This document shows positions 10,949 to 41,881 of a DNA stretch of 64,000 nt, in pieces. Made by a program: the position numbers and the translations under genes. The first letter of the stretch is position 1. Each line of letters begins with the position of its first letter. Below the pieces are notes generated by a model. The model worked only from the letters and a program-made list of their open reading frames with translations, was not told the DNA's origin and did not search any database. The DNA is taken from positions 24,976 to 88,975 of the forward strand of contig CAVQME010000011.1 of assembly GCA_963713545.1 (NCBI GenBank). Reading direction: 5' to 3'. The DNA comes from an uncultured Actinomycetes bacterium. Its GTDB lineage: Bacteria > Actinomycetota > Thermoleophilia > RBG-16-64-13.

Positions 10949-10957
10949 GGTCGTTTC

Positions 10958-16606: not shown

Positions 16607-16688
16607 CGCACAGTCAATCTGCGGCCTCCGCGCCGGCCCTCGGGCCGGAAGGCAGGCGGACAAGCCGCGCTAAGCAAGGGGAGCACGC

Positions 16689-19573: not shown

Positions 19574-19607
19574 CGCCGCCGCGAGCGCCGCAGGGTATCA
19601 TTCCCCT

Positions 19608-25198: not shown

Positions 25199-25741
25199 CT
25201 ACGCGTCCACCGTGAGGATCTCGGCACTGATCTGAGGCCGGGCCCCAGGCCCGGCCTCAGTCTCCGAGCCTCCTGCCGGTGCGATCTCGAGCCGGGCTAC
25301 AGTCCGCGGCCGGCCGAACCGCCGCGGCCCCGCCGATCCCGGGTTGAGATACAGTACCCCCTCGCGCTCCTCGACGGCCGCCACGTGGCTGTGCCCGAAC
25401 ACGATCACGGCGAAGTCCGGATCGGCCTGGAGCCTGTCCTCCCGCGCTCCGGCGCCCTGCCGCTGGACCATGTGGCCGATCAGGATGCGCGCGCCGCCAA
25501 GGGTCAATTCAGCCAGCAGGGGCAGGTCGGCCGCCCAGGCCTCCAGATCGCAATTACCGCGGACCGCCGTCACCGGGGCGATCTGCCGCAAGGCGGTCAA
25601 CACCTGCGGGGCACCGATATCACCCGCGTGGATGATGTGGTCGACCCCCCGGAGCGATTCCATCACTCGGGGGTAGAGCTGCCCGTGGGTATCGGAAAGG
25701 ACCCCGATCACCACTGATCGCGTTTCCGGCGGATGCTCCAA
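25199..25741 (-). CDS. YfcE/MJ0936-type metallophosphoesterase
   Basis: Motifs: VLSDTHG, IIHAGDIG, GNCD, GHSH. Compact size of 180 aa. Confidence 0.7.
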   Translation of the reverse strand: MEHPPETRSVVIGVLSDTHGQLYPRVMESLRGVDHIIHAGDIGAPQVLTALRQIAPVTAVRGNCDLEAWAADLPLLAELTLGGARILIGHMVQRQGAGAREDRLQADPDFAVIVFGHSHVAAVEEREGVLYLNPGSAGPRRFGRPRTVARLEIAPAGGSETEAGPGARPQISAEILTVDA

Positions 25742-25858: not shown

Positions 25859-26989
25859 TCAGAGGTCGTCACTCGACAGATCGTCGTCGTAGAGCTCGTC
25901 GCCTAGGTCGTTGCCGGCCGGAAGGTTACCGTGCTCCTGGGCGTAGCGCGCCAGCAACTCGCTCTCGCGCTGGGTGTAGAGGGGGTCGAGTTCCAAGCGG
26001 AAACAGGCAGCCGTGGAGCAGGCCGGCTCGGTCAAGGCCCGAGCCACACCTTGCCGCAGGTCGGCCACCCCCCCGATGCGCAGCACCTGCCCCTCGTGGT
26101 CCATCAGTTGGAATGTCCCGGCCTCGCTCGGGATGTCGGCCAGCCTCGCACGATCGATCGCCTCCCAGGCCGCCGGCGGGAGCACAGGGGCGACCAGACC
26201 GCTCTTGGCCCGGCGGCCGGCCAGCCATTGGGCCCCTTCTTCCCCCGGCGCGGTGAGGGCGCCGGCGGGGCACACCATGACGCACTGTCCGCAGAAGGTG
26301 CAGCCTGAGGCTCGTAACGTGTCCTGTTTCGGCTGCGCCAAGAAGTCCGAGGCGCTCGCCCTACGCTCGGGGCCCACCGCGATCGCGACCATCTTCAAAG
26401 CCCGGCCGGCATCCGGCGACGTCTCGCATACCACCACGCACCGGCCGCAACCGATGCACAGTCCCGGTTCGCGCTGGATGCGTCCTTCCTTCAGCCGGTC
26501 GCGGGGCACGGTCAGCGTTCCTCTGGCCAAGGTGCGGTCAGGGTCGACGAAGGCTACCAGCTTGCCCAGCTCACAACGACCGAGCTCGTCGCAGCACCGA
26601 GCCTCAGGCGGATAGCCGTAGGTGCATTGGTCACGGTAACAGCCGTCGCGGTCGGGGCAGGCAAGGCAGGCGTGTGGATGCCGGGTCAGAATGTCTACGA
26701 GCCGCTCCAGCCGGAGAGCATGAAGCTCGGGGTCGTCGGTGATCACGTCAGTCCCCGGTGCCGTGGGAGTGACACAGGCAAGGGCCACGCACCCATCCTG
26801 GAGCCGGACCGCGCACAGACCGCACTCGACGCCGCCCACTCCCGCCCGCGAGCAGCAGTCCATACCTGGGTAGTGGCAGAGACGAGGAACGTAGCGCCCG
26901 GCCCTATCGCAGGCTTCGAGGAGAGCGGTCCCGGTGGGGACGGTGACTGCCACCCCATCCACGCGCAGTTCCACGGTCGAGGCGCTCAC
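25859..26989 (-). CDS. NuoG-N-terminal-like iron-sulfur electron-transfer protein (2Fe-2S + His-ligated 4Fe-4S + two 4Fe-4S ferredoxin motifs)
   Basis: Cluster-binding motifs run in the same order as in NuoG / FdhA / Fe-hydrogenase N-termini: CHYPGMDCCSRAG...CGLCAV, HPHACLACPDRDGC, CIGCGRCVVVCE, CTFCGQCVMVCP. The tail is acidic. It is the last gene of the OFOR/activase operon. Confidence 0.7.
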   Translation of the reverse strand: MSASTVELRVDGVAVTVPTGTALLEACDRAGRYVPRLCHYPGMDCCSRAGVGGVECGLCAVRLQDGCVALACVTPTAPGTDVITDDPELHALRLERLVDILTRHPHACLACPDRDGCYRDQCTYGYPPEARCCDELGRCELGKLVAFVDPDRTLARGTLTVPRDRLKEGRIQREPGLCIGCGRCVVVCETSPDAGRALKMVAIAVGPERRASASDFLAQPKQDTLRASGCTFCGQCVMVCPAGALTAPGEEGAQWLAGRRAKSGLVAPVLPPAAWEAIDRARLADIPSEAGTFQLMDHEGQVLRIGGVADLRQGVARALTEPACSTAACFRLELDPLYTQRESELLARYAQEHGNLPAGNDLGDELYDDDLSSDDL

Positions 26990-27010
26990 CGGTGGTCGCG
27001 GCTCGGACTG

Positions 27011-27304
27011 CTACCAGCTGTGGCGCAGTGCGCCCGCCGTGCAGGCGTCGGTGCACGGAAGCCGATGCTGCGACCCGCCGCTGCCGTTCTGCCCCTTGCA
27101 CGTGGAACACAGCTCGCGAAGACGCTTCCGGGTCTTCTCGACCACGACGGCCACCATTTCGTCGTAGTCGTCCATCTCGATCACGTATACCCCCTGGGGA
27201 CACGCGCTCACGCAGGGGTGCTGCTCGCACCGGGCGCACAGATCGCCGTCGATGGTGATGTAGTAGAAACCTGAGCCATCTTCGTAGCCGTAGTTGGCGA
27301 TCAT
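27011..27304 (-). CDS. small ferredoxin-like Cys-rich protein (97 aa)
   Basis: The protein starts MIANYGYEDGSGFYYITIDGDLCARCEQHPCVSACPQG and ends ...CSTCK...CTDACTAG. Its start abuts the stop of the upstream activase gene. The longer ORF-track version (to 27751) is an Arg-rich antisense artefact. Confidence 0.6.
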   Translation of the reverse strand: MIANYGYEDGSGFYYITIDGDLCARCEQHPCVSACPQGVYVIEMDDYDEMVAVVVEKTRKRLRELCSTCKGQNGSGGSQHRLPCTDACTAGALRHSW

Positions 27305-28203
27305 ACTGTGGCCGCCTTCTCCTTCTCTGCCTTGCGATGCAGCGAGTGGGCGAAGAGCGCCGCGCCCAGAGCGCCGGCGATCTGCGGGTCTAGCACCGAG
27401 TCTGGCGGCAGCTTGACGGCCTCCACTCCGATCAGCCGCTCGATACGGCGGGTCACCCCGATGTTCTTGCCGATGCCTCCGGTGATGAAGAAATCCCGCT
27501 CCACCTCCATGCGCTCGATCAATCCGGCCACCCGCTGGGCCATGGCCGCGCAATAGGCGGCAAGGACGCGATCGACGCTCCAGCCGGCCCGCAGCAACGA
27601 CGTCGCCTCGGACTTGGCGAACACTGTGCAGACGTTGCTGACCGGCGGTGGCTCCTCCTCGATCTCGAAGGAGCGCCGGCCGATGTCCTCGATGGGCACC
27701 GACAGCACGTCGGCGATCACCTCCATGCCCCGGCCCGTCCCGGCGGCGCACTTGTCGTTCATGATGAAGTTCAGCACTTTGCCGCGTTCGTCGCAGCGGA
27801 TGACCTTACAATCCTGGCCGCCCATGTCGAGGATGGTGCGCACGCTGGGCCCGGCCATGAAGTTGGCACCCCGGGCGTGACAGGCGATCTCGGTGATGGT
27901 GCGGTCGGCGAAGGGCACGTTCACCCGGCCGTAACCCGTGCCTACCGCATAGCTCACGTCATCCAGGGTAAGGCCCAGCGGCTCGCTGGCTCCCTTGAAG
28001 GCACGCAGAGCGCTGTCGGGGCTCGAGGAGCCGGTGCGGGTAGAGTGGAAGGCCAGCAGCCTGCCGTCGGCCAGTAGCACGGCCTGAGAGCTGACCGATC
28101 CCACGTCGATGCCTACGACGACACTCGAGGCCGCCCTCCAGTCAAGCTCAGCGGCCTGCCAGCTCTTCTCACTCCATCTCCAGTAATCTCGCGTCTCTGT
28201 CAT
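27301..28203 (-). CDS. BadF/BadG/BcrA/BcrD (HgdC-type) ATPase, CoA-substrate-specific enzyme activase family, subunit 2
   Basis: VVGIDVGSVSSQAVL is the ASKHA phosphate-1 motif. MNDKCAAGTGRGMEV and NVCTVFAKSEATS carry the two cysteines that bridge the 4Fe-4S cluster in HgdC/BcrAD. The start at MTETRDYW is chosen because the longer ORF-track N-terminus overlaps the upstream gene. Confidence 0.75.
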   Translation of the reverse strand: MTETRDYWRWSEKSWQAAELDWRAASSVVVGIDVGSVSSQAVLLADGRLLAFHSTRTGSSSPDSALRAFKGASEPLGLTLDDVSYAVGTGYGRVNVPFADRTITEIACHARGANFMAGPSVRTILDMGGQDCKVIRCDERGKVLNFIMNDKCAAGTGRGMEVIADVLSVPIEDIGRRSFEIEEEPPPVSNVCTVFAKSEATSLLRAGWSVDRVLAAYCAAMAQRVAGLIERMEVERDFFITGGIGKNIGVTRRIERLIGVEAVKLPPDSVLDPQIAGALGAALFAHSLHRKAEKEKAATV

Positions 28204-28315
28204 CGGTTCCAGAGTCCTTTCCTCTGCCCGGGCGCTGAACAGTCCGCCGGGCCGGCACCCGGGGGATGATACCCGGCCAAGACGGGAGGGGGAAGGGGAG
28301 GGCGCGCGCCGGAGG

Positions 28316-29098
28316 CTACCCCGCCTCCGCCGCCTCCCAGGCGATGAGGGCCGCGCCATGCGCCCCCAGGTATTCGGCGTCGGCGAGGACGTAGATATCC
28401 ACCCCACCCAACGCGTCGGACAAGGACTTGACGAACCCGATGTTGAGAGCGGCACCGCCTCCCAGCACGACCGGATCCTCGACCCCGATGCGCCGCACCA
28501 TCGCTGACACCCGACCGGCCATGGCATCGTGAACGGCACGGGCGATGTCGGCCGGGGGCGTGTTGGCGTGGATGAGGCTGACTACCTCCGACTCGGCGAA
28601 CACTGTGCACTGGGCGTTCATGGGAATGGTCTCGGTGGAATCCAGGGACGCCTTGGCGAAATCATCGAGGGACATATCGAGGGCTCGGCTCATGGCCTCG
28701 ACGAACGCGCCCGCCCCGGCAGCGCACTTCTCGTTGATGGCGAAGTCGACTACCTTGCCACCGTCACCGAGACGGATCGCCCTCGCTTCGTCTGCACCGA
28801 CGTCGATGACGGTGCGGGCTCCAGGGTACAGATCGAAGGCACCCCGGCCGTCCGCAGCTACCTCGGTTGGCTGCCGGCTCGCGGAGGAAAGAGCCTTCCG
28901 CCCGGCGCCGGTGGCAGCGACAAGCCCGATGTCTTCCCGCTGCACGCCAGCGATGGCTGCAGCCTCAGTCAGGCCTCGCTCGGCCGACTCCTCCTGGTCA
29001 AAGCCGGAGGGCACGGTCGCCCGCGCCACCAGTTCACCGTCCTTCAAGAGCACGGCGTGCACGTTCTTTGCCCCCACGTCGATCCCCGCTACGAGCAT
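28316..29098 (-). CDS. BadF/BadG/BcrA/BcrD (HgdC-type) ATPase, activase family, subunit 1
   Basis: The N-terminus is MLVAGIDVGAKNVHAVL. INEKCAAGAGAFVE and NAQCTVFAESEVVS are the cluster Cys motifs. The C-terminal LGGGAALNIGFV region is also typical. It overlaps the korC copy-2 stop by about 10 nt. Confidence 0.75.
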   Translation of the reverse strand: MLVAGIDVGAKNVHAVLLKDGELVARATVPSGFDQEESAERGLTEAAAIAGVQREDIGLVAATGAGRKALSSASRQPTEVAADGRGAFDLYPGARTVIDVGADEARAIRLGDGGKVVDFAINEKCAAGAGAFVEAMSRALDMSLDDFAKASLDSTETIPMNAQCTVFAESEVVSLIHANTPPADIARAVHDAMAGRVSAMVRRIGVEDPVVLGGGAALNIGFVKSLSDALGGVDIYVLADAEYLGAHGAALIAWEAAEAG

Positions 29099-29820
29099 GT
29101 GCCACTCCTTAGCCATTCTTCCGGGTCGAGGGACAGCCCTCGATCCAGTGCTTTCTCGTTCGACTCTTCCGTGCCGGCCTGCACCGTGCTCATCACCGCT
29201 TTCCGCAGCGACCGCACAGAAACCACGCCTGTTATCGCCACCACCGCGCCCAGCGCCAGCACGTCGGCCGTTCGATCCCTCTGCCCGATCGCCTCAGTCG
29301 CCAGCCGGGCAAAAGGTACGCCGAAGCTGGTGCCCACGAAGACAGGTGGCTTGGTGACGTTCTCCGACTCGTAGACGAGGATGCTGTCAGGCCGTAGCAA
29401 TCCAGCATACCCGTCTGCCGAGTCTTGGGACAGGGCCACGAGAAGATCAGCCGACTGAAGCTCGGGGTAGTCGATGGGCTGATCGGAGATGATGATGTCG
29501 CTCCGGCCGTAGCCACCTCGAGTCCCCAGCCCATAGGTCTGAGTCTGGACGACGTAGCGGTGGTCCCGAGTGGCTGCCATCGCCAGCACAACGCCCATGA
29601 GGATGACCCCTTGGGCTCCCGTCCCTCCGAAACGCACCTCGAGGAAGTCGCGCGCCGCCAGAAGGCCGGCGCGCTCCGGAGCGGGCCCGCAGCCGGGGAC
29701 AGTCTGACCGCAGCTCCCGGCCGGTCCCCTCTGAGCGGCGGGGCCCGAGCTCCCCGGAGGTCCGACCCGGGCCGGCCGCAACGGGTCGCTCCCCTGTCCT
29801 TCTAGGCCTGGCCCGCTCAT
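29089..29820 (-). CDS. 2-oxoacid:ferredoxin oxidoreductase gamma subunit (copy 2)
   Basis: A VRFGGTGAQGV motif is present, with the gamma-subunit fold signature IISDQPIDYPELQSADLLVALSQDSADGY. The protein is about 80% identical to the copy at 31976-32620. Confidence 0.8.
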   Translation of the reverse strand: MSGPGLEGQGSDPLRPARVGPPGSSGPAAQRGPAGSCGQTVPGCGPAPERAGLLAARDFLEVRFGGTGAQGVILMGVVLAMAATRDHRYVVQTQTYGLGTRGGYGRSDIIISDQPIDYPELQSADLLVALSQDSADGYAGLLRPDSILVYESENVTKPPVFVGTSFGVPFARLATEAIGQRDRTADVLALGAVVAITGVVSVRSLRKAVMSTVQAGTEESNEKALDRGLSLDPEEWLRSGTCS

Positions 29821-30668
29821 CTGCCCGCCGGTCCGCCCGTTTGCTCCGCCGCCTCGGCTTCCGCACGGGCGATCACGGCCGCGTACGATCGCTGGAACTC
29901 GGGCCTGTCCGGATCGTGGTGGAGAACACCCGTTACTATCTTGCCCTCCAGCTCTTCAGAGGAAAGCCGGGCGGCTTCGTCCACCGAGATCGAGCAGGCT
30001 TTCTCATCGTCGAGCATGGCCAACACGCCCCCGCTGACATTTCGCATGCCGTACTCCATCGGGCAAGGCACGACGGCCTCGATGAAGGCGAAGCCCGGGT
30101 GTTGGATCCCTTGCTTGATGAAGGCCTCCATGGGCTTGATGTCCGCCGCCGTGCCGCGGGCCACGAAGGTCGCCCCCGCCGCCTCGGCCAGCCTGCAAAG
30201 GTCGAAGGGCTGCTCGACCTGCCCATAGGGGGCTGTGGTCGCCCTGTCACCCCAGGCCATGGTGGGGGAGAGCTGACCCCCGGTCATGCCGTACACCTGG
30301 TTGTTGAAGAGGATGCAGGTGAGGTCTATGTTCCGTCGGCAGGCGTGTATCAGATGATTGCCCCCTATTGCGGCCCCGTCGCCATCCCCGGTGAGCACAA
30401 CCACGGTGAACTCGGGCCGAGCCATCTTGATGCCGGTGGCGAACGCCAGCGCGCGGCCGTGGATGGTGTGCATGGTGCCCACATCCAGATAGCCCGCCGC
30501 CCGGCTGGAACAGCCTACTCCGCCGACAACGACCGTCTCCTCCCGCTTCAAGCCCAGGTCTACCATGACCCGCAGGAAGGCTCCCGTCACGATCCCGATA
30601 CCGCAACCGGCGCACCACATATGGGGCAGTCGCTCGGTGTGGAGGAACCGTTCGATCTCGAGGCTCAT
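29817..30668 (-). CDS. 2-oxoacid:ferredoxin oxidoreductase beta subunit (TPP-binding, copy 2)
   Basis: The N-terminus has WCAGCGIG. GDGDGAAIGGNH is the TPP/Mg motif, and LIHACRRNIDLTCILFNNQVYGMTGGQ follows. Confidence 0.85.
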   Translation of the reverse strand: MSLEIERFLHTERLPHMWCAGCGIGIVTGAFLRVMVDLGLKREETVVVGGVGCSSRAAGYLDVGTMHTIHGRALAFATGIKMARPEFTVVVLTGDGDGAAIGGNHLIHACRRNIDLTCILFNNQVYGMTGGQLSPTMAWGDRATTAPYGQVEQPFDLCRLAEAAGATFVARGTAADIKPMEAFIKQGIQHPGFAFIEAVVPCPMEYGMRNVSGGVLAMLDDEKACSISVDEAARLSSEELEGKIVTGVLHHDPDRPEFQRSYAAVIARAEAEAAEQTGGPAGR

Positions 30669-30671
30669 CGG

Positions 30672-31850
30672 TCACACACTTTCGTACTTGCCTATCAGCT
30701 GGGTGATCCGGTCGAGGATCTCGCGCGGCGTGATCAGGGTGCCGTCGATCTTGTTCATCCCTATCACCGTGGTCCAGTTCTCGGCCAGCTTGCGCACCTC
30801 GCGCGCGTACTGCCCCAGGTTCAGCTCCGGGACGAGCATGAATTCGACCCGCCGAGATACCGTTTGGATGATCTCCACCGGCATGGGGAACAGCGTGTAC
30901 AGGTGCAGGACCTCCACAGGCAACCCTTCCTGATCGGCCAGCTTCCAGGCGGCTCGGGCGCTACGGGCACACGAGCCGTAGGCTACGATGCATACCCGGC
31001 CCTTGCCCTCGTTCTTGACGTCGTACAGGCACAGCTCGTCCCGATGGTTGGTCACCTTGTCGTACAACTCACGCAGGAACCTTTCGCTCTTCGCCGCATC
31101 GTTCGTGGGAAAACCGGTCTCGTCATGGGTACATCCGGTCACGTGGGGATGGGTCAGAGAGCCCAGCACGTGGGGAGGATGCACTTCCCGGGCGAGATCG
31201 GGGTGCACGTAGCCGGGAGTGAAGTCGAAATCTCCGCTCGTCAGCCGGTAACGGCCCACCAGTTCCGGAGAGAAGCTCTCCCGCATGTGACCGACTGCCT
31301 CATCGGCCAACAGCGTTACCGGGGTGCGGAAGCGCTGGGCGAACCTCACCGCTGCCATGGTCAGCCGGTACATGTCGGCCACGTTGGAGGCCGCGAGCAC
31401 GATGGCGGGGTGATCCCCATGGGTGCCCCAGCGGGCCTGCATCACGTCGCCCTGAGAAGGAACGCTGACGCGCCCGGTGGAGGGGCCTTCGCGCATGACA
31501 TCCACGATCACCAGGGGCGCTTCCACCATGATCGCGTAGCCGATCGCCTCCTGCATGAGGGAGAAGCCGGGGCCCGAGGTAGCAGTCATCCCCAGCCGGC
31601 CCGAGAGGGAGGCCCCGATGCAGGCGCAGATCGAGGCGATCTCGTCCTCCATCTGTACGAAGACCCCTCCAACCCGGGGCAACTCGTAAGCCAGGGCCTC
31701 CATGATCTCCGAGCTAGGGGTGATGGGGTAGCCGGCGAAGAAACGCACGCCGGCGTCGAGAGCGCCCAAGGCACAGGCGCGGTTTCCCTGGACCAGAAGG
31801 CTACTCTGATCGATCGTTTCGCGCAGCAGGTGACTGTGCCAGAGCTCCAT
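30672..31850 (-). CDS. 2-oxoacid:ferredoxin oxidoreductase alpha subunit (copy 2)
   Basis: Motifs QGNRACALGALDAGVRFFAGYPITPSSEI and TATSGPGFSLMQEA are present. The start is set at ATG (MELWHS...) by alignment with copy 1. A GTG 21 nt upstream is an alternative; the ORF-track start at 31946 is probably too long. Confidence 0.8.
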   Translation of the reverse strand: MELWHSHLLRETIDQSSLLVQGNRACALGALDAGVRFFAGYPITPSSEIMEALAYELPRVGGVFVQMEDEIASICACIGASLSGRLGMTATSGPGFSLMQEAIGYAIMVEAPLVIVDVMREGPSTGRVSVPSQGDVMQARWGTHGDHPAIVLAASNVADMYRLTMAAVRFAQRFRTPVTLLADEAVGHMRESFSPELVGRYRLTSGDFDFTPGYVHPDLAREVHPPHVLGSLTHPHVTGCTHDETGFPTNDAAKSERFLRELYDKVTNHRDELCLYDVKNEGKGRVCIVAYGSCARSARAAWKLADQEGLPVEVLHLYTLFPMPVEIIQTVSRRVEFMLVPELNLGQYAREVRKLAENWTTVIGMNKIDGTLITPREILDRITQLIGKYESV

Positions 31851-31975
31851 CTCTTGAAAAGAGTCTAGCACCACATGCAGGCCCGCGCTCCGCCCGACAG
31901 CCCCGCTTTGCAGGCATCCAGCGCCGGCAGACAGTTGCCCTCGCAAACTCGCGGCCGCTCACTCCGCGGGGCATT

Positions 31976-32620
31976 CTATCGGGTCGGAGCCACCTGCCAG
32001 TCGGCCGGTTCGACGGCCAATCCCTTGGAGAGCGCCTGACTATTCACGTCGACGGTACCTTTGGGTACCGTTTCCACCACGGCCTTGCTCAAAGACTCCT
32101 CCGAAACCACGCCGGTGATCTTCGCGACCAGACCCAGCGCAAGCACGTTGGCCGGCTGCGGCCGTCCCGTCTCTTCCTTCGCCATGCGGGTGATAGGCAG
32201 GCCGATGCTCACGCCGGGGAAGGCGGGCGGGTTCGCGACCTTCTCGGAGTCGTAGATGAAGATGCCATTACGGCGCAAGAACCGCGTGTATCCGTCCGCC
32301 GAGTCCTGGGAAAGGGCTACGAGCAGATCGGCGAACTGGAGCTTCGGGTAGTCGATAGGGTTGTCCGAGATTATGACGTCGCTGCGACTGTAGCCGCCTC
32401 GAGCCTCCGGTCCGTACGACTCCGTCTGGACCACGCAGCGGTGGTCGTGATTGGCCGCCACGGCGAGGATGATCCCCATGAGCACCACCCCCTGTCCGCC
32501 GCTACCGCCGAACCGCACCTCGACAAACTCCCGGTCGGCCAGGAGTCCGACGCGTGCCGGGGCAGGGACCTCGGGGGAGTTGTCTACCAGACCTCGCGAC
32601 GAGCTCACGGGAGCGCTCAC
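31976..32620 (-). CDS. 2-oxoacid:ferredoxin oxidoreductase gamma subunit (copy 1)
   Basis: VEVRFGGSGGQGVVLMG and IISDNPIDYPKLQFADLLVALSQDSADGY are present. Confidence 0.85.
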   Translation of the reverse strand: MSAPVSSSRGLVDNSPEVPAPARVGLLADREFVEVRFGGSGGQGVVLMGIILAVAANHDHRCVVQTESYGPEARGGYSRSDVIISDNPIDYPKLQFADLLVALSQDSADGYTRFLRRNGIFIYDSEKVANPPAFPGVSIGLPITRMAKEETGRPQPANVLALGLVAKITGVVSEESLSKAVVETVPKGTVDVNSQALSKGLAVEPADWQVAPTR

Positions 32621-33465
32621 TGCTGCTCCTGTGCCGAAGCCAGCATCGCCGCCTCGGCCTGCGCCCGAGCTGAAGCGAAGTACGCCTGCTGGAACTCGGG
32701 TGTCGACGTGTCTTCGTAGAGCACACCCGTCACGATCTTGTCCTCGAGCTCCTCGGGGTTGAGCTTGGTGGCTTTGGCCGCAGAGACCGACCGAGCCCGC
32801 TCGTCCTCCAGCATGGCCACGACGTTCGACGTGGCATTCCGCCTACCGTATTCAGTCGGACAGGGCACCACCGCCTCGATGAAGGCGAAACCGTGGTGTT
32901 GGATCCCCCGCTTGATCAGTCTTTCTGTCTGGCGGATGTGTCCGGCGGTACCCCTGGCCACAAAGGTAGCTCCCGCCGCCTCGGCCAGCCGGCACAGATC
33001 GAAAGGCCGCTCCACCTGGCCGTGAGGAGCCGTGGTGGCGCGGTCTCCCAGGGCGGTAGTGGGTGAGAACTGACCGCCGGTCATGCCGTATATCTGGTTG
33101 TTGAAGAGGATGCAGGTGAGGTCGATGTTCCGCCGGCAGGCATGGATGAGGTGATTCCCGCCGATGGCGGCTCCGTCACCGTCGCCGGTGAGTACGATCA
33201 CAGAGAAGTTGGGCCGAGCCATCTTGATGCCGGTGGCGACGGCGAGCGCCCGCCCGTGTATGGAGTGCACGGTGCCAAGGTCGAGGTAGTTCGAAGCCCG
33301 GCTGGAGCAGCCGATGCCGCTCACCACCACGGTGCTCTCGCGCTTCAGACCGAGGTCGACCACCGCCCGCAGGAAGGCACCGGTGACCATTCCCACCCCG
33401 CAGCCCGGGCACCAGATGTGGGGAAGCCGTTCTGTGTGAAGGTATTCTTCGATCTCCAGTGCCAT
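32617..33465 (-). CDS. 2-oxoacid:ferredoxin oxidoreductase beta subunit (TPP-binding, copy 1)
   Basis: WCPGCGVG and GDGDGAAIGGNHLIHACRRNIDLTCILFNNQIYGMTGGQ are present. There is a 4-nt overlap with the gamma gene. Confidence 0.85.
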   Translation of the reverse strand: MALEIEEYLHTERLPHIWCPGCGVGMVTGAFLRAVVDLGLKRESTVVVSGIGCSSRASNYLDLGTVHSIHGRALAVATGIKMARPNFSVIVLTGDGDGAAIGGNHLIHACRRNIDLTCILFNNQIYGMTGGQFSPTTALGDRATTAPHGQVERPFDLCRLAEAAGATFVARGTAGHIRQTERLIKRGIQHHGFAFIEAVVPCPTEYGRRNATSNVVAMLEDERARSVSAAKATKLNPEELEDKIVTGVLYEDTSTPEFQQAYFASARAQAEAAMLASAQEQQ

Positions 33466-33468
33466 CAG

Positions 33469-34671
33469 CTACACGCTTTCATACTTCCCGATCAGTTCCC
33501 CGATGCGGTCGACGATCTCCCGGGGCGTGAAGAGATTGCCGTCGATCTTTCCCATGCCGATGACGGTGGTCCATTGCTCGGCCATCTTGCGCACCTCGTG
33601 CGCGTACTGCCCTAGGTTAAGCTCGGGGATGAGCATGAACTCCACCCTCCGGGCCACCGTCTGCACGATCTCGACGGGCAGGGGGAAGAGGGTGTAGAGG
33701 TGAAGGACCTCCACCTGCAGACCCTCCTCGTCCGCCAGCTTCAACGCCGCTCGGGCGCTGCGGGCACAGGAGCCGTAGGCTACGATGCATACCCGGCCCT
33801 TGCCCTCGTTCTTGACGTCGTACAGGCACAGCTCGTCCCGGTGGTGGGCCACCTTGTTGTAGAGTTCGCGCAAAAACGCGTCGCTGCGATCCGGGTCGTT
33901 GGTGGGGAAGCCGGTCTCGTCGTGGAAGAGCCCTGTGACGTGAGGATGGCTACCCGATCCTAGCACGTGCGGGCGATGCACCTCGCGGGCGAGATCGGGG
34001 TGCACGTACGTGGGTGTGAAATTGAAATCGCCGCTCGTCAAGCGGTACCTTCCTACCAGTTCAGGGGTGAAGCTCTCCCGCATCTGACCGATTATCTGGT
34101 CGGCCAGCAGAATGACCGGGGTGCGGAAGCGCTGGGCGAACCTCACCGCCGCCATGGTCAGCCGGTACATGTCGGCCACATTGGAGGCCGCGAGCACGAT
34201 GGCGGGGTGATCCCCATGGGTGCCCCAGCGGGCCTGCATCACGTCGCCCTGGGAAGGAGCGGTGGGCCGCCCCGTCGATGGCCCCACCCGCATGACGTTG
34301 ACGACGAGCAGCGGCGCTTCCACCATGATCGCGTAGCCCAGCGCCTCCTGCATGAGGGAGAAGCCAGGACCTGAGGTAGCCGTCATCGCCAGTTCTCCCG
34401 TGAGCGCCGCCCCTATGCAGGCGCAGATAGAGCCGATCTCATCCTCCATCTGGACGAACACCCCTCCGGCTAGAGGCAACTCCACGGCCATGGTCTCCAT
34501 GATCTCGGAGCTCGGGGTGATGGGGTAGCCGGCAAAGAAGTTGACTCCGGCATCGAGGGCACCCAGGGCGCAGGCGCGGTTCCCCTGGATCACAAGGCTG
34601 GTGCTCGGATCGATCCTCTCCCCTAGCAGGTGTGTGCGCCAGCGTTCCACTCGGTCCTCCGACGAAGTCAC
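33469..34671 (-). CDS. 2-oxoacid:ferredoxin oxidoreductase alpha subunit (copy 1)
   Basis: IQGNRACALGALDAGVNFFAGYPITPSSEIME is present. The protein is about 85% identical to copy 2. The start codon abuts the tetR stop. Confidence 0.85.
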   Translation of the reverse strand: MTSSEDRVERWRTHLLGERIDPSTSLVIQGNRACALGALDAGVNFFAGYPITPSSEIMETMAVELPLAGGVFVQMEDEIGSICACIGAALTGELAMTATSGPGFSLMQEALGYAIMVEAPLLVVNVMRVGPSTGRPTAPSQGDVMQARWGTHGDHPAIVLAASNVADMYRLTMAAVRFAQRFRTPVILLADQIIGQMRESFTPELVGRYRLTSGDFNFTPTYVHPDLAREVHRPHVLGSGSHPHVTGLFHDETGFPTNDPDRSDAFLRELYNKVAHHRDELCLYDVKNEGKGRVCIVAYGSCARSARAALKLADEEGLQVEVLHLYTLFPLPVEIVQTVARRVEFMLIPELNLGQYAHEVRKMAEQWTTVIGMGKIDGNLFTPREIVDRIGELIGKYESV

Positions 34672-35345
34672 TGTTGTACGCTCGCCCGCTCGATATCAGG
34701 CGAGCGGAGGTAGGCGATGATCACATCGGCAAGCTTGTGGATGAGGAGGTCACTGGGGACCGAGTCAGCAAAGGCTACCCCCGAACGGCACCGCTGCACG
34801 TTCTCCTCCTGGGCGGCCTGCCAGAGCCGGGAAGCCACCCGGGCCGCCGACTCGGGGTCCGAATGACCTATCTGGGCGGCATGGCCCATAAGGATATCCA
34901 CCTCGAGGGCCTCGACCTGCGCTTTGTAGGTGTAGCCCCGCTCCCGCAGGACGGGATCGGTGGCCCCGTAGACGACGAAGGCCTCGAGCAGCCTATCGTT
35001 GCCATTGGTCGCCTCCTGCTTGATATCGACCAGACTGCGCACAGTCTCTTCCAGAGAGAGCGCTTCCCAGTCGATCTTGGCAGCCTCGTCCCGGATCTGC
35101 GTCTCTTCGCGGCCATGGACCCGCTCCTGCACCGCATGGAGCAGTGCGGTCTTGTCTTGGAAGCGCGCATAGAAGGTCCCGATGGACGTGTTCGAGCGGC
35201 GCACTACCTCTGCCACGGTGAGCGCTTCGTAGCCCTTGTTACGGATCAGCGTCTCCGCAGTTTTGAGGATCCGCTCCAGAGAGTCGGAACTGCGTTGCTG
35301 CCGGGGCGACTTGACGGCGTGTGCTGACTCGATCACGAGGGGCAT
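34668..35345 (-). CDS. TetR/AcrR-family transcriptional regulator
   Basis: An N-terminal HTH is present (RSSDSLERILKTAETLIRNKGYEALTVAEVVRRSNTSIGTFYARF). The start is set at MPLVIE because the longer ORF-track start would lie inside the operator palindrome. Confidence 0.8.
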   Translation of the reverse strand: MPLVIESAHAVKSPRQQRSSDSLERILKTAETLIRNKGYEALTVAEVVRRSNTSIGTFYARFQDKTALLHAVQERVHGREETQIRDEAAKIDWEALSLEETVRSLVDIKQEATNGNDRLLEAFVVYGATDPVLRERGYTYKAQVEALEVDILMGHAAQIGHSDPESAARVASRLWQAAQEENVQRCRSGVAFADSVPSDLLIHKLADVIIAYLRSPDIERASVQQ

Positions 35346-35381
35346 TCTAACATCGCGCCCGATGTGGGACCACATCCTGCA

Positions 35382-35429
35382 GAGCACTTGACGATAGAAT
35401 CTAGATTCTATATTCTATCGATAGTGCTC
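35382..35429. promoter_or_regulatory. AT-rich composite palindromic operator in the tetR / ALS-like divergent intergenic region
   Basis: Outer inverted repeat GAGCACT...AGTGCTC. Nested arms CGATAGAAT / ATTCTATCG. A central 18-bp perfect palindrome ATAGAATCTAGATTCTAT (35394-35411). A tandem half-site ATTCTAT-ATTCTAT. The local AT content is very high for this genome. Confidence 0.55.
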
Positions 35430-35597: not shown

Positions 35598-37229
35598 ATG
35601 AAAGCCGCCGACCTGTTCGTCCGTTGTCTCGAGAACGAGAACGTCGAATACGTGTTCGGGGTCCCCGGGGAAGAGACCCTCCAGTTGGTCGACTCGCTCT
35701 CAGCGAGCAAGGTGCGCTTTGTCACCTGCCGCCACGAGCAGGGAGCGGCCTTCATGGCCGACGTCTACGGACGTCTGACAGGCCGGGCCGGCGTGTGCCT
35801 CTCCACCCTGGGACCAGGCGCAACCAATCTGGTGACAGGAGTGGCCGACGCCAACATGGACATGGCTCCACTCGTGGCCATCTCGGGCCAAGCCCCCACC
35901 ACCCGACTCCACAAGAAGAGCCACCAGGTGATAGACCTCGTGGATCTGTTCGAGCCCATCACCAAGTTCAGCGCCCAGGTCCGCACTCCGGAGATCATCC
36001 CGGAGATCGTGCGCAAGGCCTTCAAGCTCGCAGAGGCAGAGATCCCGGGCGCCTGTTTCATCGAGCTGCCGCAGAACGTGGCAGAGGAGGATCTGCCCGA
36101 GCTGCCTGCGCTGCGCAGGCAGAGCCCGCTGCCTCCCGTTCCGAATCCTGTCGCGCTGCAGCATTTGACGGAGCTGATAGACGCCTCTCAGCGCCCGCTC
36201 GTGATGGCAGGACACGGGGTGGTCCGCGCAGGGGCTGCCGACCGACTGGTGAACTTCGCTGAGACCCTCAACGTCCCGGTAGTGACCACCTTCATGGCCA
36301 AGGGAGTCATGCCGGCCTCGCACCGGTTGTTCCTGGGGACTGCGGGGCTGCAGTCCAAGGACTACAACTATTGTGGCTTCAAGCAGGCCGACCTGGTCAT
36401 ATGCGTAGGCTATGACATGGTCGAGTACCACCCCTACCTGTGGCGCCGCGAGTCTCACCAAGTCGCGCACATCCATTCCGCACCCGCCGAGGTGGACGAG
36501 CACTACATCGTCTCCGGAGGACTGGTGGGCGACATCGGGGCCGGCATCGCCGGATTGACGGAGCGCTGCTGCCGTCACCGCCATCGCCTCTCCGGCACCC
36601 CGCGCCGCCACCTCCTGGCGGAGATACGGGAGCGCGCCGACGACGAGGGCTTTCCGGTCAAGCCCCAGAAGATCGTCCACGACCTGCGCCAGGCCTTGGA
36701 GCCGGACGACATTGTCATCAGCGACGTGGGAGCCCACAAGATGTGGCTGGCCCGCCTCTACCAGACCGAGCGGCCAAACACCTGCATCATCTCCAACGGC
36801 TTCGCAGCGATGGGGATCGCCCTCCCCGGGGCGCTGGCGGCCGCCCTCGTGCACCCGGAGAAGGCCGTAGTGGCCGTCACCGGAGACGGGGGGTTCATGC
36901 TGAACTCCCAGGAGCTCGAGACGGCGGTGCGACTCGGCCTGAACTTCGTCGTGCTGATTTGGAACGACTCCTCGTACGGACTGATCGAGTGGAAGCAGGT
37001 ATGCCAGCTCGGCCGGACGAGCTGCGTGGATTTCGGCAATCCCGATTTCGTGCAGTATGCGAAGAGCTTTGGAGCACACGCCTGCCGCATCGAGAAGGCC
37101 GCGGACCTGCTGCCGGAACTACACGCGGCGATCGCGCGGAAGGGCATCACGGTGATCGATTGCCCGGTAGACTATCGAGAGAACCTGGTCCTGACCGAGC
37201 GCCTGGGGGCGCTCGTCTGCAGGGACTGA
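35598..37229 (+). CDS. thiamine-pyrophosphate enzyme of the acetolactate synthase family (catabolic AlsS-like, large subunit only)
   Basis: The N-terminal TPP-PYR domain (VFGVPGEETLQLVD...RHEQGAAFMADVYGRLTG) and the C-terminal TPP-binding domain (GDGGFMLNSQELETA) are both present. No small regulatory subunit gene is adjacent. Confidence 0.8.
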   Translation: MKAADLFVRCLENENVEYVFGVPGEETLQLVDSLSASKVRFVTCRHEQGAAFMADVYGRLTGRAGVCLSTLGPGATNLVTGVADANMDMAPLVAISGQAPTTRLHKKSHQVIDLVDLFEPITKFSAQVRTPEIIPEIVRKAFKLAEAEIPGACFIELPQNVAEEDLPELPALRRQSPLPPVPNPVALQHLTELIDASQRPLVMAGHGVVRAGAADRLVNFAETLNVPVVTTFMAKGVMPASHRLFLGTAGLQSKDYNYCGFKQADLVICVGYDMVEYHPYLWRRESHQVAHIHSAPAEVDEHYIVSGGLVGDIGAGIAGLTERCCRHRHRLSGTPRRHLLAEIRERADDEGFPVKPQKIVHDLRQALEPDDIVISDVGAHKMWLARLYQTERPNTCIISNGFAAMGIALPGALAAALVHPEKAVVAVTGDGGFMLNSQELETAVRLGLNFVVLIWNDSSYGLIEWKQVCQLGRTSCVDFGNPDFVQYAKSFGAHACRIEKAADLLPELHAAIARKGITVIDCPVDYRENLVLTERLGALVCRD

Positions 37230-37268
37230 CACGGCCCGGAGGCTGTGGGAAGAGGAAGGACTGCAGTC

Positions 37269-38621
37269 ATGACAGACACCGCCAGACTCGTCATCGGGGG
37301 CGCGGCCCATGATCTCCCTGTAGTCGTGGGGACCGAGGGTGAACGGGCTCTCGATATCTCTAGCTTGAGGGATATCAGCGGACACATCACGCTCGACGAG
37401 GGCTACATCAACACGGGCTCGTGCTCATCGGCCATCACCTTCGTCGACGGCGAGAGGGGCATACTGCGCTACCGCGGCATCCCCATCGAGCAACTGGCCG
37501 TCAAGAGCACGTTCGTGGAGACCTGCTGGCTGCTCATCTATGGCGAGCTACCCACTCGCGAGCAGCTCAAGTGCTGGAGCGGCCTCTTCACCAAGTACGA
37601 AATGATCCACGAGGGGCTCTACCACCACTTCGACGGTTTCCCCGCCACCGGGCACCCGATGGCCATACTTTCCGCCATGATCAATGCGATGAGCTGCTAT
37701 GAGCCGAGCCTGATGGAGATGGAGAGCCCGGCCACCTTCCAACTGGCGGCAGCCCGCCTCATCAGCAAGCTGCGTACCATCGCCGCCGCCAGCTACAAAG
37801 CCTCCATCGGCCAGCCCATCGTCTACCCCAAGCCGCACCTCGACTACTGCACGAACTTCCTGCACATGATGTTCTCCATCCCCTTCGGCGACTACGAGCC
37901 CGATCCCGACACCGTAGCCGCACTGCAACTGATCCTCATCCTGCACGCCGACCACGAACAGAACTGCTCGTCGAGCACCGTGCGCATGGTGGCGTCGTCG
38001 GGAGCCAACATGTTCGCCAGTTGCGCGGCCGGCGTATGTGCCCTGTGGGGGCCGCTCCACGGCGGAGCCAACGCCGCGGTCGTGGAAATGCTGCAGGACC
38101 TGCACAGGAACAACGTTGACCTGAATGACTATATCGCCCGGGTCAAGGACAAGAGCTCGCCCCTACGCCTCATGGGCTTCGGCCATCGGGTCTACAAAAA
38201 CTACGACCCTCGGGCCAGCATCATGAAGGCGATGGCCGACAAGCTGCTCGGCAAGCGCAAGGGCACGGACCCTCTGCTGGAGATCGCCAAGCGGCTCGAG
38301 GACGTGGCGCTGCACGACCCCTATTTCGTCGAGCGCCGCCTGTATCCCAACGTGGACTTCTATTCAGGTGTCATCCTCCACGCCATGGGCATCCCGGTGA
38401 ACATGTTCACGGTGATGTTCGCCATGGGACGCATGCCCGGGTGGATCGCCAACTGGAAAGAGGTTCGCGACGGCGACGGCGTCCTTTACCGCCCCCGCCA
38501 GGTGTACGTGGGAGAAGGCCAACGGGACTACGTTCCCATCGAGGAGCGCCTGGGAGGCGGCTGTCTGGCACCGGGAGGACCGGGGGACGGTACGGGCCCG
38601 TCGGTTTGCCCGGTGTGCTGA
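37269..38621 (+). CDS. gltA: citrate synthase (type II-like)
   Basis: Motifs: GILRYRGIPIEQL, LHADHEQNCSSSTVRMVASSGANMF (catalytic His), GFGHRVYKNYDPRA, VDFYSG. The C-terminal tail is short, Gly/Pro/Cys-rich and non-canonical. Confidence 0.9.
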   Translation: MTDTARLVIGGAAHDLPVVVGTEGERALDISSLRDISGHITLDEGYINTGSCSSAITFVDGERGILRYRGIPIEQLAVKSTFVETCWLLIYGELPTREQLKCWSGLFTKYEMIHEGLYHHFDGFPATGHPMAILSAMINAMSCYEPSLMEMESPATFQLAAARLISKLRTIAAASYKASIGQPIVYPKPHLDYCTNFLHMMFSIPFGDYEPDPDTVAALQLILILHADHEQNCSSSTVRMVASSGANMFASCAAGVCALWGPLHGGANAAVVEMLQDLHRNNVDLNDYIARVKDKSSPLRLMGFGHRVYKNYDPRASIMKAMADKLLGKRKGTDPLLEIAKRLEDVALHDPYFVERRLYPNVDFYSGVILHAMGIPVNMFTVMFAMGRMPGWIANWKEVRDGDGVLYRPRQVYVGEGQRDYVPIEERLGGGCLAPGGPGDGTGPSVCPVC

Positions 38622-38988: not shown

Positions 38989-39012
38989 TGGAACGAACCC
39001 CGCGGCAAAAGG

Positions 39013-41163: not shown

Positions 41164-41251
41164 GGGGCCTCAGTGTAGCACGGAGGCTCGCAGGCCCCAG
41201 GACCGGCCCATGAGGCTCCGGAAAGGGGGGCGCCGGCCAGAAGAAGCCGTC

Positions 41252-41782: not shown

Positions 41783-41881
41783 GAGACAAGCATCCCCCAG
41801 GCCGGGGGCTCCTAAACCGACTCCGGGATCGAAGATACGTGGGATGCGTCCCGGCCGGCTCCGCGCGCGCCGGACCCCGGC

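Follow-up and report, generated by a model that had tools for sequence, protein, structure and literature searches.

The 2-hydroxyacyl-CoA dehydratase activators HgdC, HadI, and FldI, which belong to systems with HgdAB/HadBC dehydratases, are homodimers of one gene product. DCCP-R is also a homodimer, and its partner, DCCP, is a relative of HGD-D. In the Azoarcus/bzd-type class I (ATP-dependent) benzoyl-CoA reductase (BzdNOPQ; structural relative MbdONQP, PDB code 9gai), the gene for the ferredoxin BzdM follows that for BzdQ. In the DCCP/DCCP-R system, an Fe-S acceptor of low potential receives electrons energized by an ASKHA metallo-ATPase (PMC9351452, PMC7317905). The donor that regenerates ferredoxin for benzoyl-CoA reductase is the 2-oxoglutarate:ferredoxin oxidoreductase KorAB, whose genes are found within aromatic-degradation clusters, as in Thauera aromatica, in R. 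palustris BisB5 and BisA53, and in Chloroflexi, where korAB occurs with bzdV (PMC9973337, PMC5736913).

Here, we analyzed a 64-kb stretch of DNA from an uncultured Actinomycetes bacterium (the window), in which a minus-strand cluster at 25859-35387 encodes a TetR regulator, two alpha-beta-gamma sets of a 2-oxoacid:ferredoxin oxidoreductase (OFOR), two ATPases, a ferredoxin, and an Fe-S protein. The cluster and its neighbors comprise the following features:

25199..25741, minus strand: metallophosphoesterase downstream of the cluster (PF12850)
25859..26989, minus strand: NuoG/HydA N-terminal-like Fe-S protein (Pfam Fer2_4, 2x[4Fe-4S], and DUF7508; PDB sequence search; fold search)
27011..27304, minus strand: 2[4Fe-4S] ferredoxin, 97 aa, positional equivalent of BzdM (weak Fer4 matches; 8 conserved Cys)
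27301..28203, minus strand: ATPase 2, BzdQ/BcrA/MbdQ-like (PF01869, E 2.7e-54; TIGR03192 BzdQ, 412.9 bits, above the 380.2 cut-off)
28204..28315, minus strand: intergenic gap of 112 nt separating ATPase 1 from ATPase 2, a hotspot for insertions in relatives (sequence reading)
28316..29116, minus strand: ATPase 1, BzdP/BcrD/MbdP-like (PF01869, E 2.6e-44; TIGR00241, 203 bits, above the 125 cut-off)
29089..29820, minus strand: OFOR gamma, copy 2 (PF01558)
29817..30668, minus strand: OFOR beta, copy 2 (PF02775)
30672..31946, minus strand: OFOR alpha, copy 2 (PF01855 and PF17147; passes the PRK08659 cut-off)
31976..32620, minus strand: OFOR gamma, copy 1 (PF01558, E 1.2e-33)
32617..33465, minus strand: OFOR beta (TPP, [4Fe-4S]), copy 1 (PF02775, E 6e-35)
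33469..34671, minus strand: OFOR alpha, copy 1 (PF01855 and PF17147; PRK08659, 466 bits, above the 411 cut-off)
34668..35387, minus strand: TetR-family regulator that opens the operon (PF00440, E 2.1e-13)
35598-37229, plus strand: acetolactate-synthase-like TPP enzyme, divergent from the cluster (PRK08322, 775 bits, above 509)
37245-38621, plus strand: type I citrate synthase, divergent from the cluster (PRK05614, 588 bits, above 505)

The Pfam and NCBIfam profile matches confirmed the gene content and minus-strand order given in the original prediction. Its uniform spacing of 0 to 21 nt does not hold: ATPase 1 and ATPase 2 are 112 nt apart, and gamma 1 and alpha 2 are separated by 29 to 122 nt depending on the start codon chosen for alpha 2, whose real start is probably near 31853 (the orthologue in L002 has 392 aa). 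Most neighboring genes overlap (the TetR stop with the alpha 1 start, for example) or lie within a few bases of each other, and a search for minus-strand terminator-like sites inside the cluster found none; thus, co-transcription is plausible. In several relatives, the ATPase pair is split: in L011, L014, L016, L170, and L171, the gap holds 5-kb insertions encoding an opposite-strand ABC transporter, NTP_transf_5, and a ParA-like protein, so the two ATPases are not always a single transcription unit; in L003, HicA and small open reading frames are inserted. The arrangement itself recurs in 21 related loci of the window's lineage (variant B) and is not due to chance. TetR is kept upstream of the OFOR in most of these loci (the L170/L171 subtype lacks it), and the acetolactate-synthase-like and citrate synthase genes (35598..38621) adjoin TetR-OFOR in many of them.

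The three OFOR subunits carry all of the domains expected from the four-subunit KorDABC/OorDABC enzymes. Alpha copy 1 has orthologues of 78 to 99% identity in Actinomycetota metagenome-assembled genomes, and the best NCBIfam match of beta copy 1, below cut-off, is the beta subunit of 2-oxoglutarate:ferredoxin oxidoreductase. The motifs CPGCG, GCSS, GDGD, and VVPCP can be read directly in beta copy 1. The two copies share 83% identity in alpha and 76% in beta. Although the nearest homologue from outside, in Calderihabitans (50% identity), is accompanied by a delta ferredoxin gene, no delta (2x[4Fe-4S]) gene is present in any of the actinobacterial OFOR loci. An OFOR without delta depends on a ferredoxin from another gene, which this operon supplies. 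As in the KorAB systems, the OFOR is encoded with reductase ATPase subunits and a ferredoxin, and the expected flow is from 2-oxoacid through OFOR and ferredoxin to the ATPase module. In contrast to KorAB, this OFOR has three subunits and is tandemly duplicated, the catalytic subunits of the reductase are missing from the locus, and the 3' end of gamma copy 2 overlaps the start of ATPase 1, an overlap also seen in L002, L003, L170, and L171.

The ATPases were predicted to belong to the HgdC/BcrAD family and to carry its bridging cysteines, and both points are borne out by the PF01869 matches and by motifs that are kept across relatives (NEKCAAGAG and CTVFAESE in ATPase 1; NDKCAAGTG and CTVFAKSEA in ATPase 2). 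Among the PDB sequence matches of ATPase 2, itself a BzdQ equivalog, are HadI (4eht; 7.9e-60, the best) and MbdQ (9gai_D; 1.9e-55). The family is common to this locus and the dehydratase activators, and the energizing of electrons by an ASKHA metallo-ATPase is also a likeness to DCCP-R. However, where HgdC, HadI, and FldI are products of one gene, the ATPases here are two paralogues (36% identity), as in the reductases. Both are under strong purifying selection and are therefore functional: dN/dS is 0.05 to 0.17 for ATPase 1 and 0.06 to 0.08 for ATPase 2, the lowest in the cluster and as low as or below that of GAPDH and citrate synthase. No gene of the locus is more conserved than that of ATPase 2, which keeps 83 to 94% identity between loci with saturated synonymous sites.

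The ATPase1-ATPase2-ferredoxin-Fe-S cassette has a wide distribution. Other phyla contribute 49 loci (Hippea, Campylobacterales, Latescibacterota, Sulfuricaulis, and metagenomes) in which it lies directly 3' of bona fide bzdN-bzdO, with the Hippea N and O proteins scoring at or near the bzdN/bzdO cut-offs. In six loci of sister Actinomycetota (variant A), it occupies the same chromosomal site as in the window, marked by Metallophos-GAPDH-PPDK synteny (the metallophosphoesterase is also present in L002, L003, L085, and L167), and is followed by HK-RR-ECH-ApbA-CoA ligase and then a pair of HadBC-like HGD-D genes, as found in 2-hydroxyacyl-CoA dehydratase systems. The partner type thus differs between loci, Bzd-like in some and Had-like in others, indicating that the cassette has switched HGD-D partner at least once and that replacement is possible. 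The ferredoxin has 95 homologues, which always come after ATPase 2, as does BzdM after Q, and conserve the eight cysteines, an N-terminal MIANYGYxDGSG, and a C-terminal HSW. Next in order, in bzd-type loci as in variants A and B, is the Fe-S gene. Its product has 2Fe-2S, His/Cys 4Fe-4S, and 2x 4Fe-4S clusters and a C-terminal DUF7508 domain.

Variant B differs from both of these arrangements, since the delta-less OFOR overlaps ATPase 1 and there is no HGD-D gene nearby. The original prediction of no HGD-D/BcrBC/DCCP partner in the cluster holds for the whole window: Pfam scans found no such homologue among its called genes, tblastn with seven HGD-D proteins returned only E > 0.8, and an HMM built from these proteins returned only E > 2 against the six-frame translation. 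Accordingly, neither dehydratase nor DCCP genes were detected in the window. Compared with the bzd type, BzdN/BzdO genes are absent from the window and from the 10 kb flanking the cassette in the 21 variant B loci, OFOR genes take the place upstream of P, and dienoyl-CoA hydratase, dehydrogenase, and hydrolase genes are lacking. The 10 kb flanking each side of the cassette in these loci contain no HGD-D gene of any kind. A variant A HGD-D protein used as the query returned 19 protein clusters, none of them on known variant B contigs (including the 3.56-Mb ERZ25039495:contig_18476), in a search sensitive to roughly ≥58% identity.

We put the probability at roughly one half that the cluster is not a complete enzyme but an electron-supply and electron-activation line for a putative unlinked HGD-D-type acceptor. 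The cassette is linked to HGD-D genes in bzd-type and variant A loci, its bridging-cysteine motifs are intact here, and an OFOR is the established ferredoxin-reducing donor of benzoyl-CoA reductase (PMC9973337, PMC5736913). Variant B ATPases retain most positions that are ≥90% conserved in N/O-linked relatives (122 of 136 in ATPase 2; 59 of 68 in ATPase 1) and show only three class-specific switches, all conservative, which points to a docking partner of the same kind. In addition, related genomes have OFOR orthologues (81 to 86% identity) at a distance of 16 to 22 kb from the cassette, so the OFOR is an autonomous enzyme and not an obligate ATPase partner. Against this reading are the lack of an HGD-D gene near the variant B cassettes, in the window, or, at roughly ≥58% identity, on known variant B contigs; the earlier partner replacement, which shows that another could occur; and the tight, conserved gamma/ATPase 1 overlap, which resembles a junction between subunits more than one between donor and acceptor. 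The split arrangement would also be unusual, because, to our knowledge, all characterized class I reductases have four adjacent subunit genes.

It is fairly unlikely that the two halves are neighbors without functional coupling, the OFOR being the lineage's tricarboxylic acid (TCA) cycle 2-oxoglutarate:ferredoxin oxidoreductase and the cassette, juxtaposed by loss of the genes between them, serving an unlinked acceptor with electrons from any reduced ferredoxin. In L168 and L166, the OFOR sits behind the same flanking genes (radical SAM, HATPase_c_2, and DUF6049-like) with about 16 kb of unrelated genes between it and the cassette on one contig, and the separation is about 22 kb in L169 and L013; the adjoining citrate synthase and the insertion-prone intergenic region also fit. 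However, the gamma/ATPase 1 overlap is kept across variant B loci with saturated synonymous sites (dS of about 1 or more), the operon supplies the ferredoxin that the OFOR requires, and the order from OFOR through ferredoxin to ATPase is the known logic of benzoyl-CoA reductase systems (PMC9973337).

The original prediction proposed that this may be an ATP-coupled OFOR. In this reading, a BzdPQ-ferredoxin cassette that lost its HGD-D partner now feeds ATP-energized electrons to the delta-less OFOR and would drive reductive carboxylation (acyl-CoA + CO2 to 2-oxoacid) or reductive reactivation of the enzyme. The ATPase family, bridging cysteines, and missing local partner on which it drew all stand, but the linkage of OFOR to such ATPases, which it took to be undescribed, is already known from korAB clusters (PMC9973337, PMC5736913) and recurs in the bzd-type loci L132 and L137, with OFOR genes a few kilobases downstream, and elsewhere the cassette pairs with HGD-D. 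We regard this coupling as unlikely. In its favor, the OFOR is the operon's only large redox enzyme, joined to ATPase 1 by the overlap in every variant B locus; the HGD-D block of variant A is missing at the same site in variant B and was not found on variant B contigs at roughly ≥58% identity; the ATPases remain under strong selection; an OFOR cluster lacking a delta subunit would be exposed to a new docking partner; and the conserved citrate synthase neighbor is compatible with a TCA-related anabolic role. On the other hand, the ATPases lack the class-specific change that a move to a structurally unrelated partner should leave, the distant OFOR orthologues include one from a genome where the cassette is paired with an HGD-D of its own, and the 5-kb insertions part ATPase 2 from ATPase 1 and the OFOR. 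We know of no precedent for such coupling. It would also be energetically odd, with 2 ATP per carboxylation and an enormous overpotential.

Quite unlikely is an acceptor that is neither HGD-D nor OFOR, whether the NuoG-like Fe-S protein with its DUF7508 or other targets of a cassette acting as a general generator of electrons at very low potential. The cassette has changed partner before, and the Fe-S protein, which travels with it in different phyla, carries a C-terminal domain of unassigned function that folds with high confidence. However, this protein is the least constrained in the cluster (dN/dS of 0.2 to 0.3), shows no catalytic domain by Pfam, PDB sequence search, or fold search, and is dispensable, as its gene is missing from some loci of both variants (L096, L097, and L167). 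That the ATPase genes are functionless leftovers of HGD-D block loss, as the local absence of catalytic genes might suggest, is very improbable and effectively refuted by the selection data, with ATPase 2 retaining its identity, low dN/dS, and intact motifs across loci with saturated synonymous sites.

In the supply line that we favor, one or two delta-less OFORs would oxidize a 2-oxoacid, probably 2-oxoglutarate, and reduce the BzdM-type ferredoxin of the operon, with the NuoG-like Fe-S protein as a possible accessory wire. By analogy with KorAB, Fdx, and benzoyl-CoA reductase, electrons would then pass to the [4Fe-4S] cluster bridging the BzdP/BzdQ-type ATPase heterodimer, where ATP hydrolysis would bring them to very low potential for delivery to an HGD-D-family partner of the BcrBC/BzdNO, HadBC, or double-cubane type. 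This putative catalytic half, absent from the window, is most likely encoded elsewhere in the genome.

The original prediction for the minus strand at 25859-35387 listed a set of open reading frames (ORFs) that our ORF calls and Pfam matches bear out. The window is high-GC (about 65% GC), and its nearest relatives are uncultured Actinomycetota metagenome-assembled genomes labeled Actinomycetes, Thermoleophilia, Gaiellales, or Coriobacteriaceae. The cluster and its flanks are made up as follows:

First gene of the 25859-35387 cluster, minus strand: TetR regulator (listed ORF)
Within 25859-35387, minus strand: two 2-oxoacid:ferredoxin oxidoreductase (OFOR) alpha subunits (PF01855 and PF17147)
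Within 25859-35387, minus strand: two OFOR beta subunits (TPP-binding PF02775)
Within 25859-35387, minus strand: two OFOR gamma subunits (PF01558)
Within 25859-35387, minus strand: ATPase 1 and ATPase 2 (PF01869)
27011-27304, minus strand: ferredoxin of 97 aa (weak Pfam Fer4 matches)
Within 25859-35387, minus strand: Fe-S protein of 376 aa (Fer2_4, 2x[4Fe-4S], weak DUF7508 match)
One flank of the cluster: metallophosphoesterase, convergent GAPDH, frameshifted PPDK-like gene
Other flank of the cluster: acetolactate-synthase-like TPP enzyme and type I citrate synthase, divergent

The genes had been described as spaced by 0 to 21 nt. Most junctions do overlap or lie a few bases apart, but ATPase 1 and ATPase 2 are separated by 112 nt, and 29 to 122 nt precede the second alpha gene. 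A scan inside the cluster found no terminator-like sites on the minus strand and promoter-like sites only at chance level; a cluster split by terminators or promoters was rejected on these grounds. In the flank, the PPDK-like gene (19458-23796, plus strand; PPDK_N/PEP-utilizers) is divided into overlapping frames at 19458-22850 and 22354-23796, and in three related loci (L002, L003, and L085) it is a single ORF of 1376 to 1395 aa. The frameshift behind this split is due to an assembly error or marks a pseudogene.

All of the domains expected of the OFOR subunits were matched, and the [4Fe-4S] cysteine ligands and GDGD motif of the beta subunit were read directly from the translations. Both alpha subunits passed the cutoff of PRK08659, a generic 2-oxoacid model and the only NCBIfam model that alpha passes, and the best model for beta was of the 2-oxoglutarate type, with a score below its cutoff (293 versus 364). 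The neighboring citrate synthase hints at 2-oxoglutarate as the substrate. The two OFOR copies are 83% identical in alpha, 76% in beta, and 61% in gamma. Complete tandem duplication (29089-34671) was seen in no locus but the window and L002/L004, its closest relative; several others (L014, L016, L170, and L171) combine a single OFOR with an additional gamma gene, diverged in sequence, immediately ahead of ATPase 1. Unlike the four-subunit OFOR class, the window's enzyme is without a delta (2x[4Fe-4S] ferredoxin-like) subunit: a small Fer4 gene before OFOR alpha was found neither in the window nor in L002, L003, and L168 to L171. Such a delta ferredoxin gene does precede alpha in the closest non-actinobacterial homologue, from Calderihabitans (50% identity). 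Since the actinobacterial loci have no delta gene, a separate ferredoxin must take the electrons of their OFOR.

Placement of the two ASKHA-fold ATPases in the BcrAD/HgdC family was confirmed by PF01869 (Pfam; E = 2.6e-44 for ATPase 1 and 2.7e-54 for ATPase 2), and both exceeded the TIGR00241 cutoff of 125 (203 and 211 bits). ATPase 2 is a BzdQ equivalog (NCBIfam TIGR03192; 412.9 bits versus a trusted cutoff of 380.2). The two proteins are 36% identical and are encoded side by side, so that they are distinct neighboring paralogues, as in the heterodimeric ATPase of bzd-type reductases. By sequence, the nearest experimental structures are HadI (4eht) and the MbdQ/MbdP subunits of 3-methylbenzoyl-CoA reductase (9gai); in these PDB matches, ATPase 1 corresponds to MbdP and ATPase 2 to MbdQ. 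The pair of bridging cysteines claimed for each ATPase is present, within NDKCAAGTG and CTVFAKSEA in ATPase 2 and NEKCAAGAG and CTVFAESE in ATPase 1. From the HgdC and HadI structures, we take these cysteines to be bridging [4Fe-4S] ligands.

The ferredoxin gene lies 3' of ATPase 2 throughout its 95-member family and, by position, is the equivalent of bzdM. The 95 sequences share eight invariant cysteines, an invariant N-terminal MIANYGYxDGSG (in its longer form, MIANYGYxDGSGxYYITID), and a C-terminal HSW. The cysteine spacing is atypical (C-x2-C-x4-C-x3-CP ... C-x2-C-x14-C-x3-C), and Pfam Fer4 models matched it weakly. The Fe-S protein contains the N-terminal module of NuoG and HydA, with a 2Fe-2S Fer2_4 domain, a His/Cys3 4Fe-4S site, and a 2x4Fe-4S domain (Pfam); H104, C108, C111, and C117, along with other cysteine columns, are invariant in its alignment. 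PDB sequence and fold searches likewise matched it to the N-terminal Fe-S chain of NuoG, HydA, and NAD-dependent formate dehydrogenase, and its structural model, of medium quality (pLDDT 66.5), confirms the NuoG-like N-terminal part only. The C-terminal ~100 aa (25859-26170, the DUF7508 region) are predicted to form a small alpha/beta domain (pLDDT 83 to 96) with a GIY-YIG-like motif (GVFxL..G.VLRIGGV.DL), an invariant TQRESE, and an acidic tail. Its conservation extends from the clusters of the bzd type to those of Actinomycetota.

To place the cassette formed by ATPase 1, ATPase 2, the ferredoxin, and the Fe-S protein, we scanned one genome per species with the Fe-S protein alignment and metagenome contigs with ATPase 2. 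Mapping all components onto 165 loci yielded three gene contexts. The bzd type (49 loci; ATPase 2 60 to 67% identical to that of the window) has the order bzdN-bzdO-ATPase1-ATPase2-Fd-FeS and is found in Hippea, Campylobacterales, Latescibacterota, Sulfuricaulis, and many metagenome contigs. Its Hippea catalytic subunits belong to PF06050 (the HGD-D family), with bzdO scoring 645 bits against a cutoff of 449 and bzdN 445 against 454. Full bzdNOPQ-Fd-FeS clusters occur in Hippea (L021 and L025) and Campylobacterales (L020), and L019 is cut within bzdO; downstream in L025 are genes for a thiolase and a short-chain dehydrogenase, along with further ORFs and a distant CoA-ligase-like match. Hippea and Campylobacterales are not usually linked to benzoyl-CoA reduction.

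The other two contexts are actinobacterial. Variant A (L040, L084, L085, L101, L166, and L167; ATPase 2 72 to 78% identical to the window's) has the order ATPase1-ATPase2-Fd-(FeS)-histidine kinase-LytTR regulator-enoyl-CoA hydratase-ApbA-like-CoA ligase-HGD-D-HGD-D. A metallophosphoesterase lies downstream in L085 and L167, and L085 also has GAPDH and a PPDK-like gene, as in the flank of the window's cluster. The variant A HGD-D pair is closer to HadB/HadC than to BzdN/BzdO and scores far below any cutoff. Variant A is an apparently undescribed 12-gene cluster that joins a BzdPQ-like heterodimeric ATPase to an HGD-D pair that is Had-like, not Bzd-like, and it probably encodes a new radical enzyme for acyl-CoA or aryl-CoA substrates. 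Variant B, to which the window belongs (21 loci; ATPase 2 83 to 94% identical), has the order (citrate synthase-(TPP enzyme), divergent)-TetR-OFOR alpha-beta-gamma-ATPase1-ATPase2-Fd-FeS-metallophosphoesterase, with one OFOR, two, or one with an extra gamma. In a neighbor-joining tree of ATPase 2, variants A and B are sister clades within an actinobacterial branch, itself sister to the bzd-type sequences.

To our knowledge, HgdC/BcrAD ATPases act only with partners of the HGD-D type, namely, 2-hydroxyacyl-CoA dehydratases, benzoyl-CoA reductases, and double-cubane proteins. The predicted absence of such a partner held: Pfam analysis of essentially every plausible gene in the window found no PF06050 protein. 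With seven HGD-D proteins from related loci as queries, tblastn against the 64-kb window returned only matches of E > 0.8, and a hidden Markov model (HMM) built from the same seven returned only E > 2 against its six-frame translation. On these negatives, an HGD-D or double-cubane gene hidden in the window by misreading was rejected. No HGD-D gene lies within 10 kb of the cassette in the 21 variant B loci, and no homologue of the variant A HGD-D protein used as query was matched on known variant B contigs by a word-indexed search that reached ~58% identity or more. The window resembles a bzd-type class I reductase in its BzdQ-type subunit and two-paralogue ATPase but differs from it in having neither BzdN/BzdO nor downstream ring-pathway genes; the Pfam survey of the window found no dienoyl-CoA hydratase, dehydrogenase, or ring hydrolase genes, and an enoyl-CoA hydratase query gave chance-level matches only.

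Elsewhere in the window, the stretches 10011-13493 (minus strand) and 16674-18047 (plus strand) hold a group of genes for a UbiX-type flavoprotein, a tungsten-type aldehyde:ferredoxin oxidoreductase, a ThiS/MoaD-like protein, and a poly-ferredoxin, with a PaaK-like phenylacetate-CoA ligase gene nearby that is syntenic in many related loci. Taken together, these genes hint that the organism metabolizes aromatic compounds or aryl acids. A run of ordinary genes for fatty-acid synthesis at 54187-61234 (minus strand; accA/accD-like, fabF, fabG, fabD, fabH, and FabA-like) is unrelated to the OFOR-ATPase cluster.

ATP-dependent benzoyl-CoA reductase receives its electrons from a dedicated ferredoxin. 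KorAB, a 2-oxoglutarate:ferredoxin oxidoreductase, re-reduces this ferredoxin, and in some R. palustris strains korAB lies within the aromatic-degradation cluster (PMC9973337); in marine Chloroflexi, the genes annotated alongside bzdNOPQM include a "korAB and bzdV" regenerating system (PMC5736913). Among our bzd-type loci, L132 and L137 have OFOR genes a few kilobases downstream. The genetic linkage of an OFOR to activase ATPases is thus not unprecedented, contrary to the statement in the original prediction that none had been described. In the window and 21 related loci, the likeness to a KorAB-type donor is that an OFOR is encoded with ATPase subunits and a dedicated ferredoxin. Our literature search on OFORs with activase ATPases, BzdV, and archerase found this KorAB relation and no paper describing the actinobacterial arrangement. 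What is unusual here is the local absence of HGD-D genes together with a direct fusion of OFOR and ATPase 1, an arrangement kept under strong selection across a diverse uncultured lineage.

The best-supported reading, to which we give a probability of about one-half, is a supply line from the OFOR through the ferredoxin to the BzdPQ-type ATPase, for an HGD-D acceptor encoded elsewhere. A 2-oxoacid would give electrons to the delta-less OFOR, which would reduce the BzdM-type ferredoxin with or without the NuoG-like protein as a wire. The ferredoxin would then pass electrons to the ATPase, which would energize them for the HGD-D-family acceptor.

Rather unlikely is an adjacency of OFOR and cassette without functional coupling. 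An OFOR alpha orthologue (81% identical) is on the same 854,086-bp contig as the variant A locus L166, where ~16 kb of ABC-transporter and Kdp genes separate OFOR alpha-beta-gamma from the cassette; on the L013 contig, the OFOR (86% identity) and ATPase2-Fd-FeS are ~22 kb apart. Orthologues standing 16 to 22 kb from the cassette indicate that the OFOR is an autonomous enzyme of the lineage. It is a long-standing neighbor of the cassette, fused to it only in variant B. A link between the two is favored by the gamma/ATPase 1 overlap, conserved throughout variant B, and by the need of the delta-less OFOR for a separate ferredoxin. The OFOR on the L166 contig is preceded by radical SAM, HATPase_c_2, and DUF6049-like genes, as upstream of the window's OFOR. 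In the window, this block (38629-42958, minus strand) encodes radical SAM, HATPase_c_2 anti-sigma-like, 716-aa DUF6049-like, and 119-aa proteins, with citrate synthase, TPP enzyme, and TetR genes between it and the OFOR; in L168, L170, and L171, it directly precedes the OFOR. The short intergenic stretch that divides the two ATPase genes (28204-28315) has repeatedly taken up insertions in relatives. It holds a HicA toxin gene and small ORFs in L003 and 5-kb insertions with an opposite-strand ABC transporter in L011, L014, L016, L170, and L171; the 5-kb blocks also carry NTP_transf_5 and a ParA-like gene. In every case, ATPase 1 remains together with the OFOR, and ATPase 2 together with the ferredoxin.

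The ATP-coupled OFOR of the original prediction is unlikely. Here, a BzdPQ-ferredoxin cassette would have lost its HGD-D partner and been captured by an operon for a delta-less OFOR, which it would now energize. If true, it would be without precedent as a 2-oxoacid synthase coupled to ATP or as a system that reactivates an OFOR with ATP, and the BcrAD/HgdC ATPase family would gain its first client outside HGD-D. The ATPase cysteine motifs are kept at ≥90% in the variant B, variant A, and bzd-type groups. ATPase 2 of variant B keeps 122 of the 136 positions that are conserved at ≥90% in the N/O-linked bzd type, and ATPase 1 keeps 59 of 68. For variant B pairs, in which synonymous sites are near saturation, dN/dS was 0.06 to 0.08 for ATPase 2 and 0.05 to 0.17 for ATPase 1, compared with 0.03 to 0.11 for OFOR alpha, 0.07 to 0.22 for GAPDH, and 0.2 to 0.3 for the Fe-S protein. 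This pattern speaks against the ATPases having changed to a docking partner of unrelated structure. Their functional divergence toward a new partner was rejected as well, since a search for class-specific substitutions found only three, all conservative, that set variant B apart from variant A and the bzd type. That the cassette serves another new acceptor is a distinctly improbable reading. A decaying remnant is very improbable and is rejected by the dN/dS results; low dN/dS, intact motifs, and retained conserved positions argue against ATPase decay. The Fe-S protein is the least constrained in the cluster and its gene is missing from a few loci of variants A and B; we therefore treat it as accessory.

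Collectively, these data define a conserved four-gene cassette (P, Q, ferredoxin, and NuoG-like Fe-S protein) that moves between catalytic contexts. They also bring out two sister arrangements in Actinomycetota. One, so far undescribed, has HGD-D subunits of the Had-like kind; in the other, the cassette is fused to an OFOR operon and is under very strong selection, although no catalytic partner is encoded locally. If whole genomes prove to be without HGD-D, the second arrangement would reveal that ATP-driven transfer of low-potential electrons has a new client, with a bearing on CO2-fixing OFOR chemistry. If the partner is found elsewhere, the OFOR and ferredoxin would here form a dedicated line of donors to a split radical enzyme of uncultured, anaerobic Actinomycetota.
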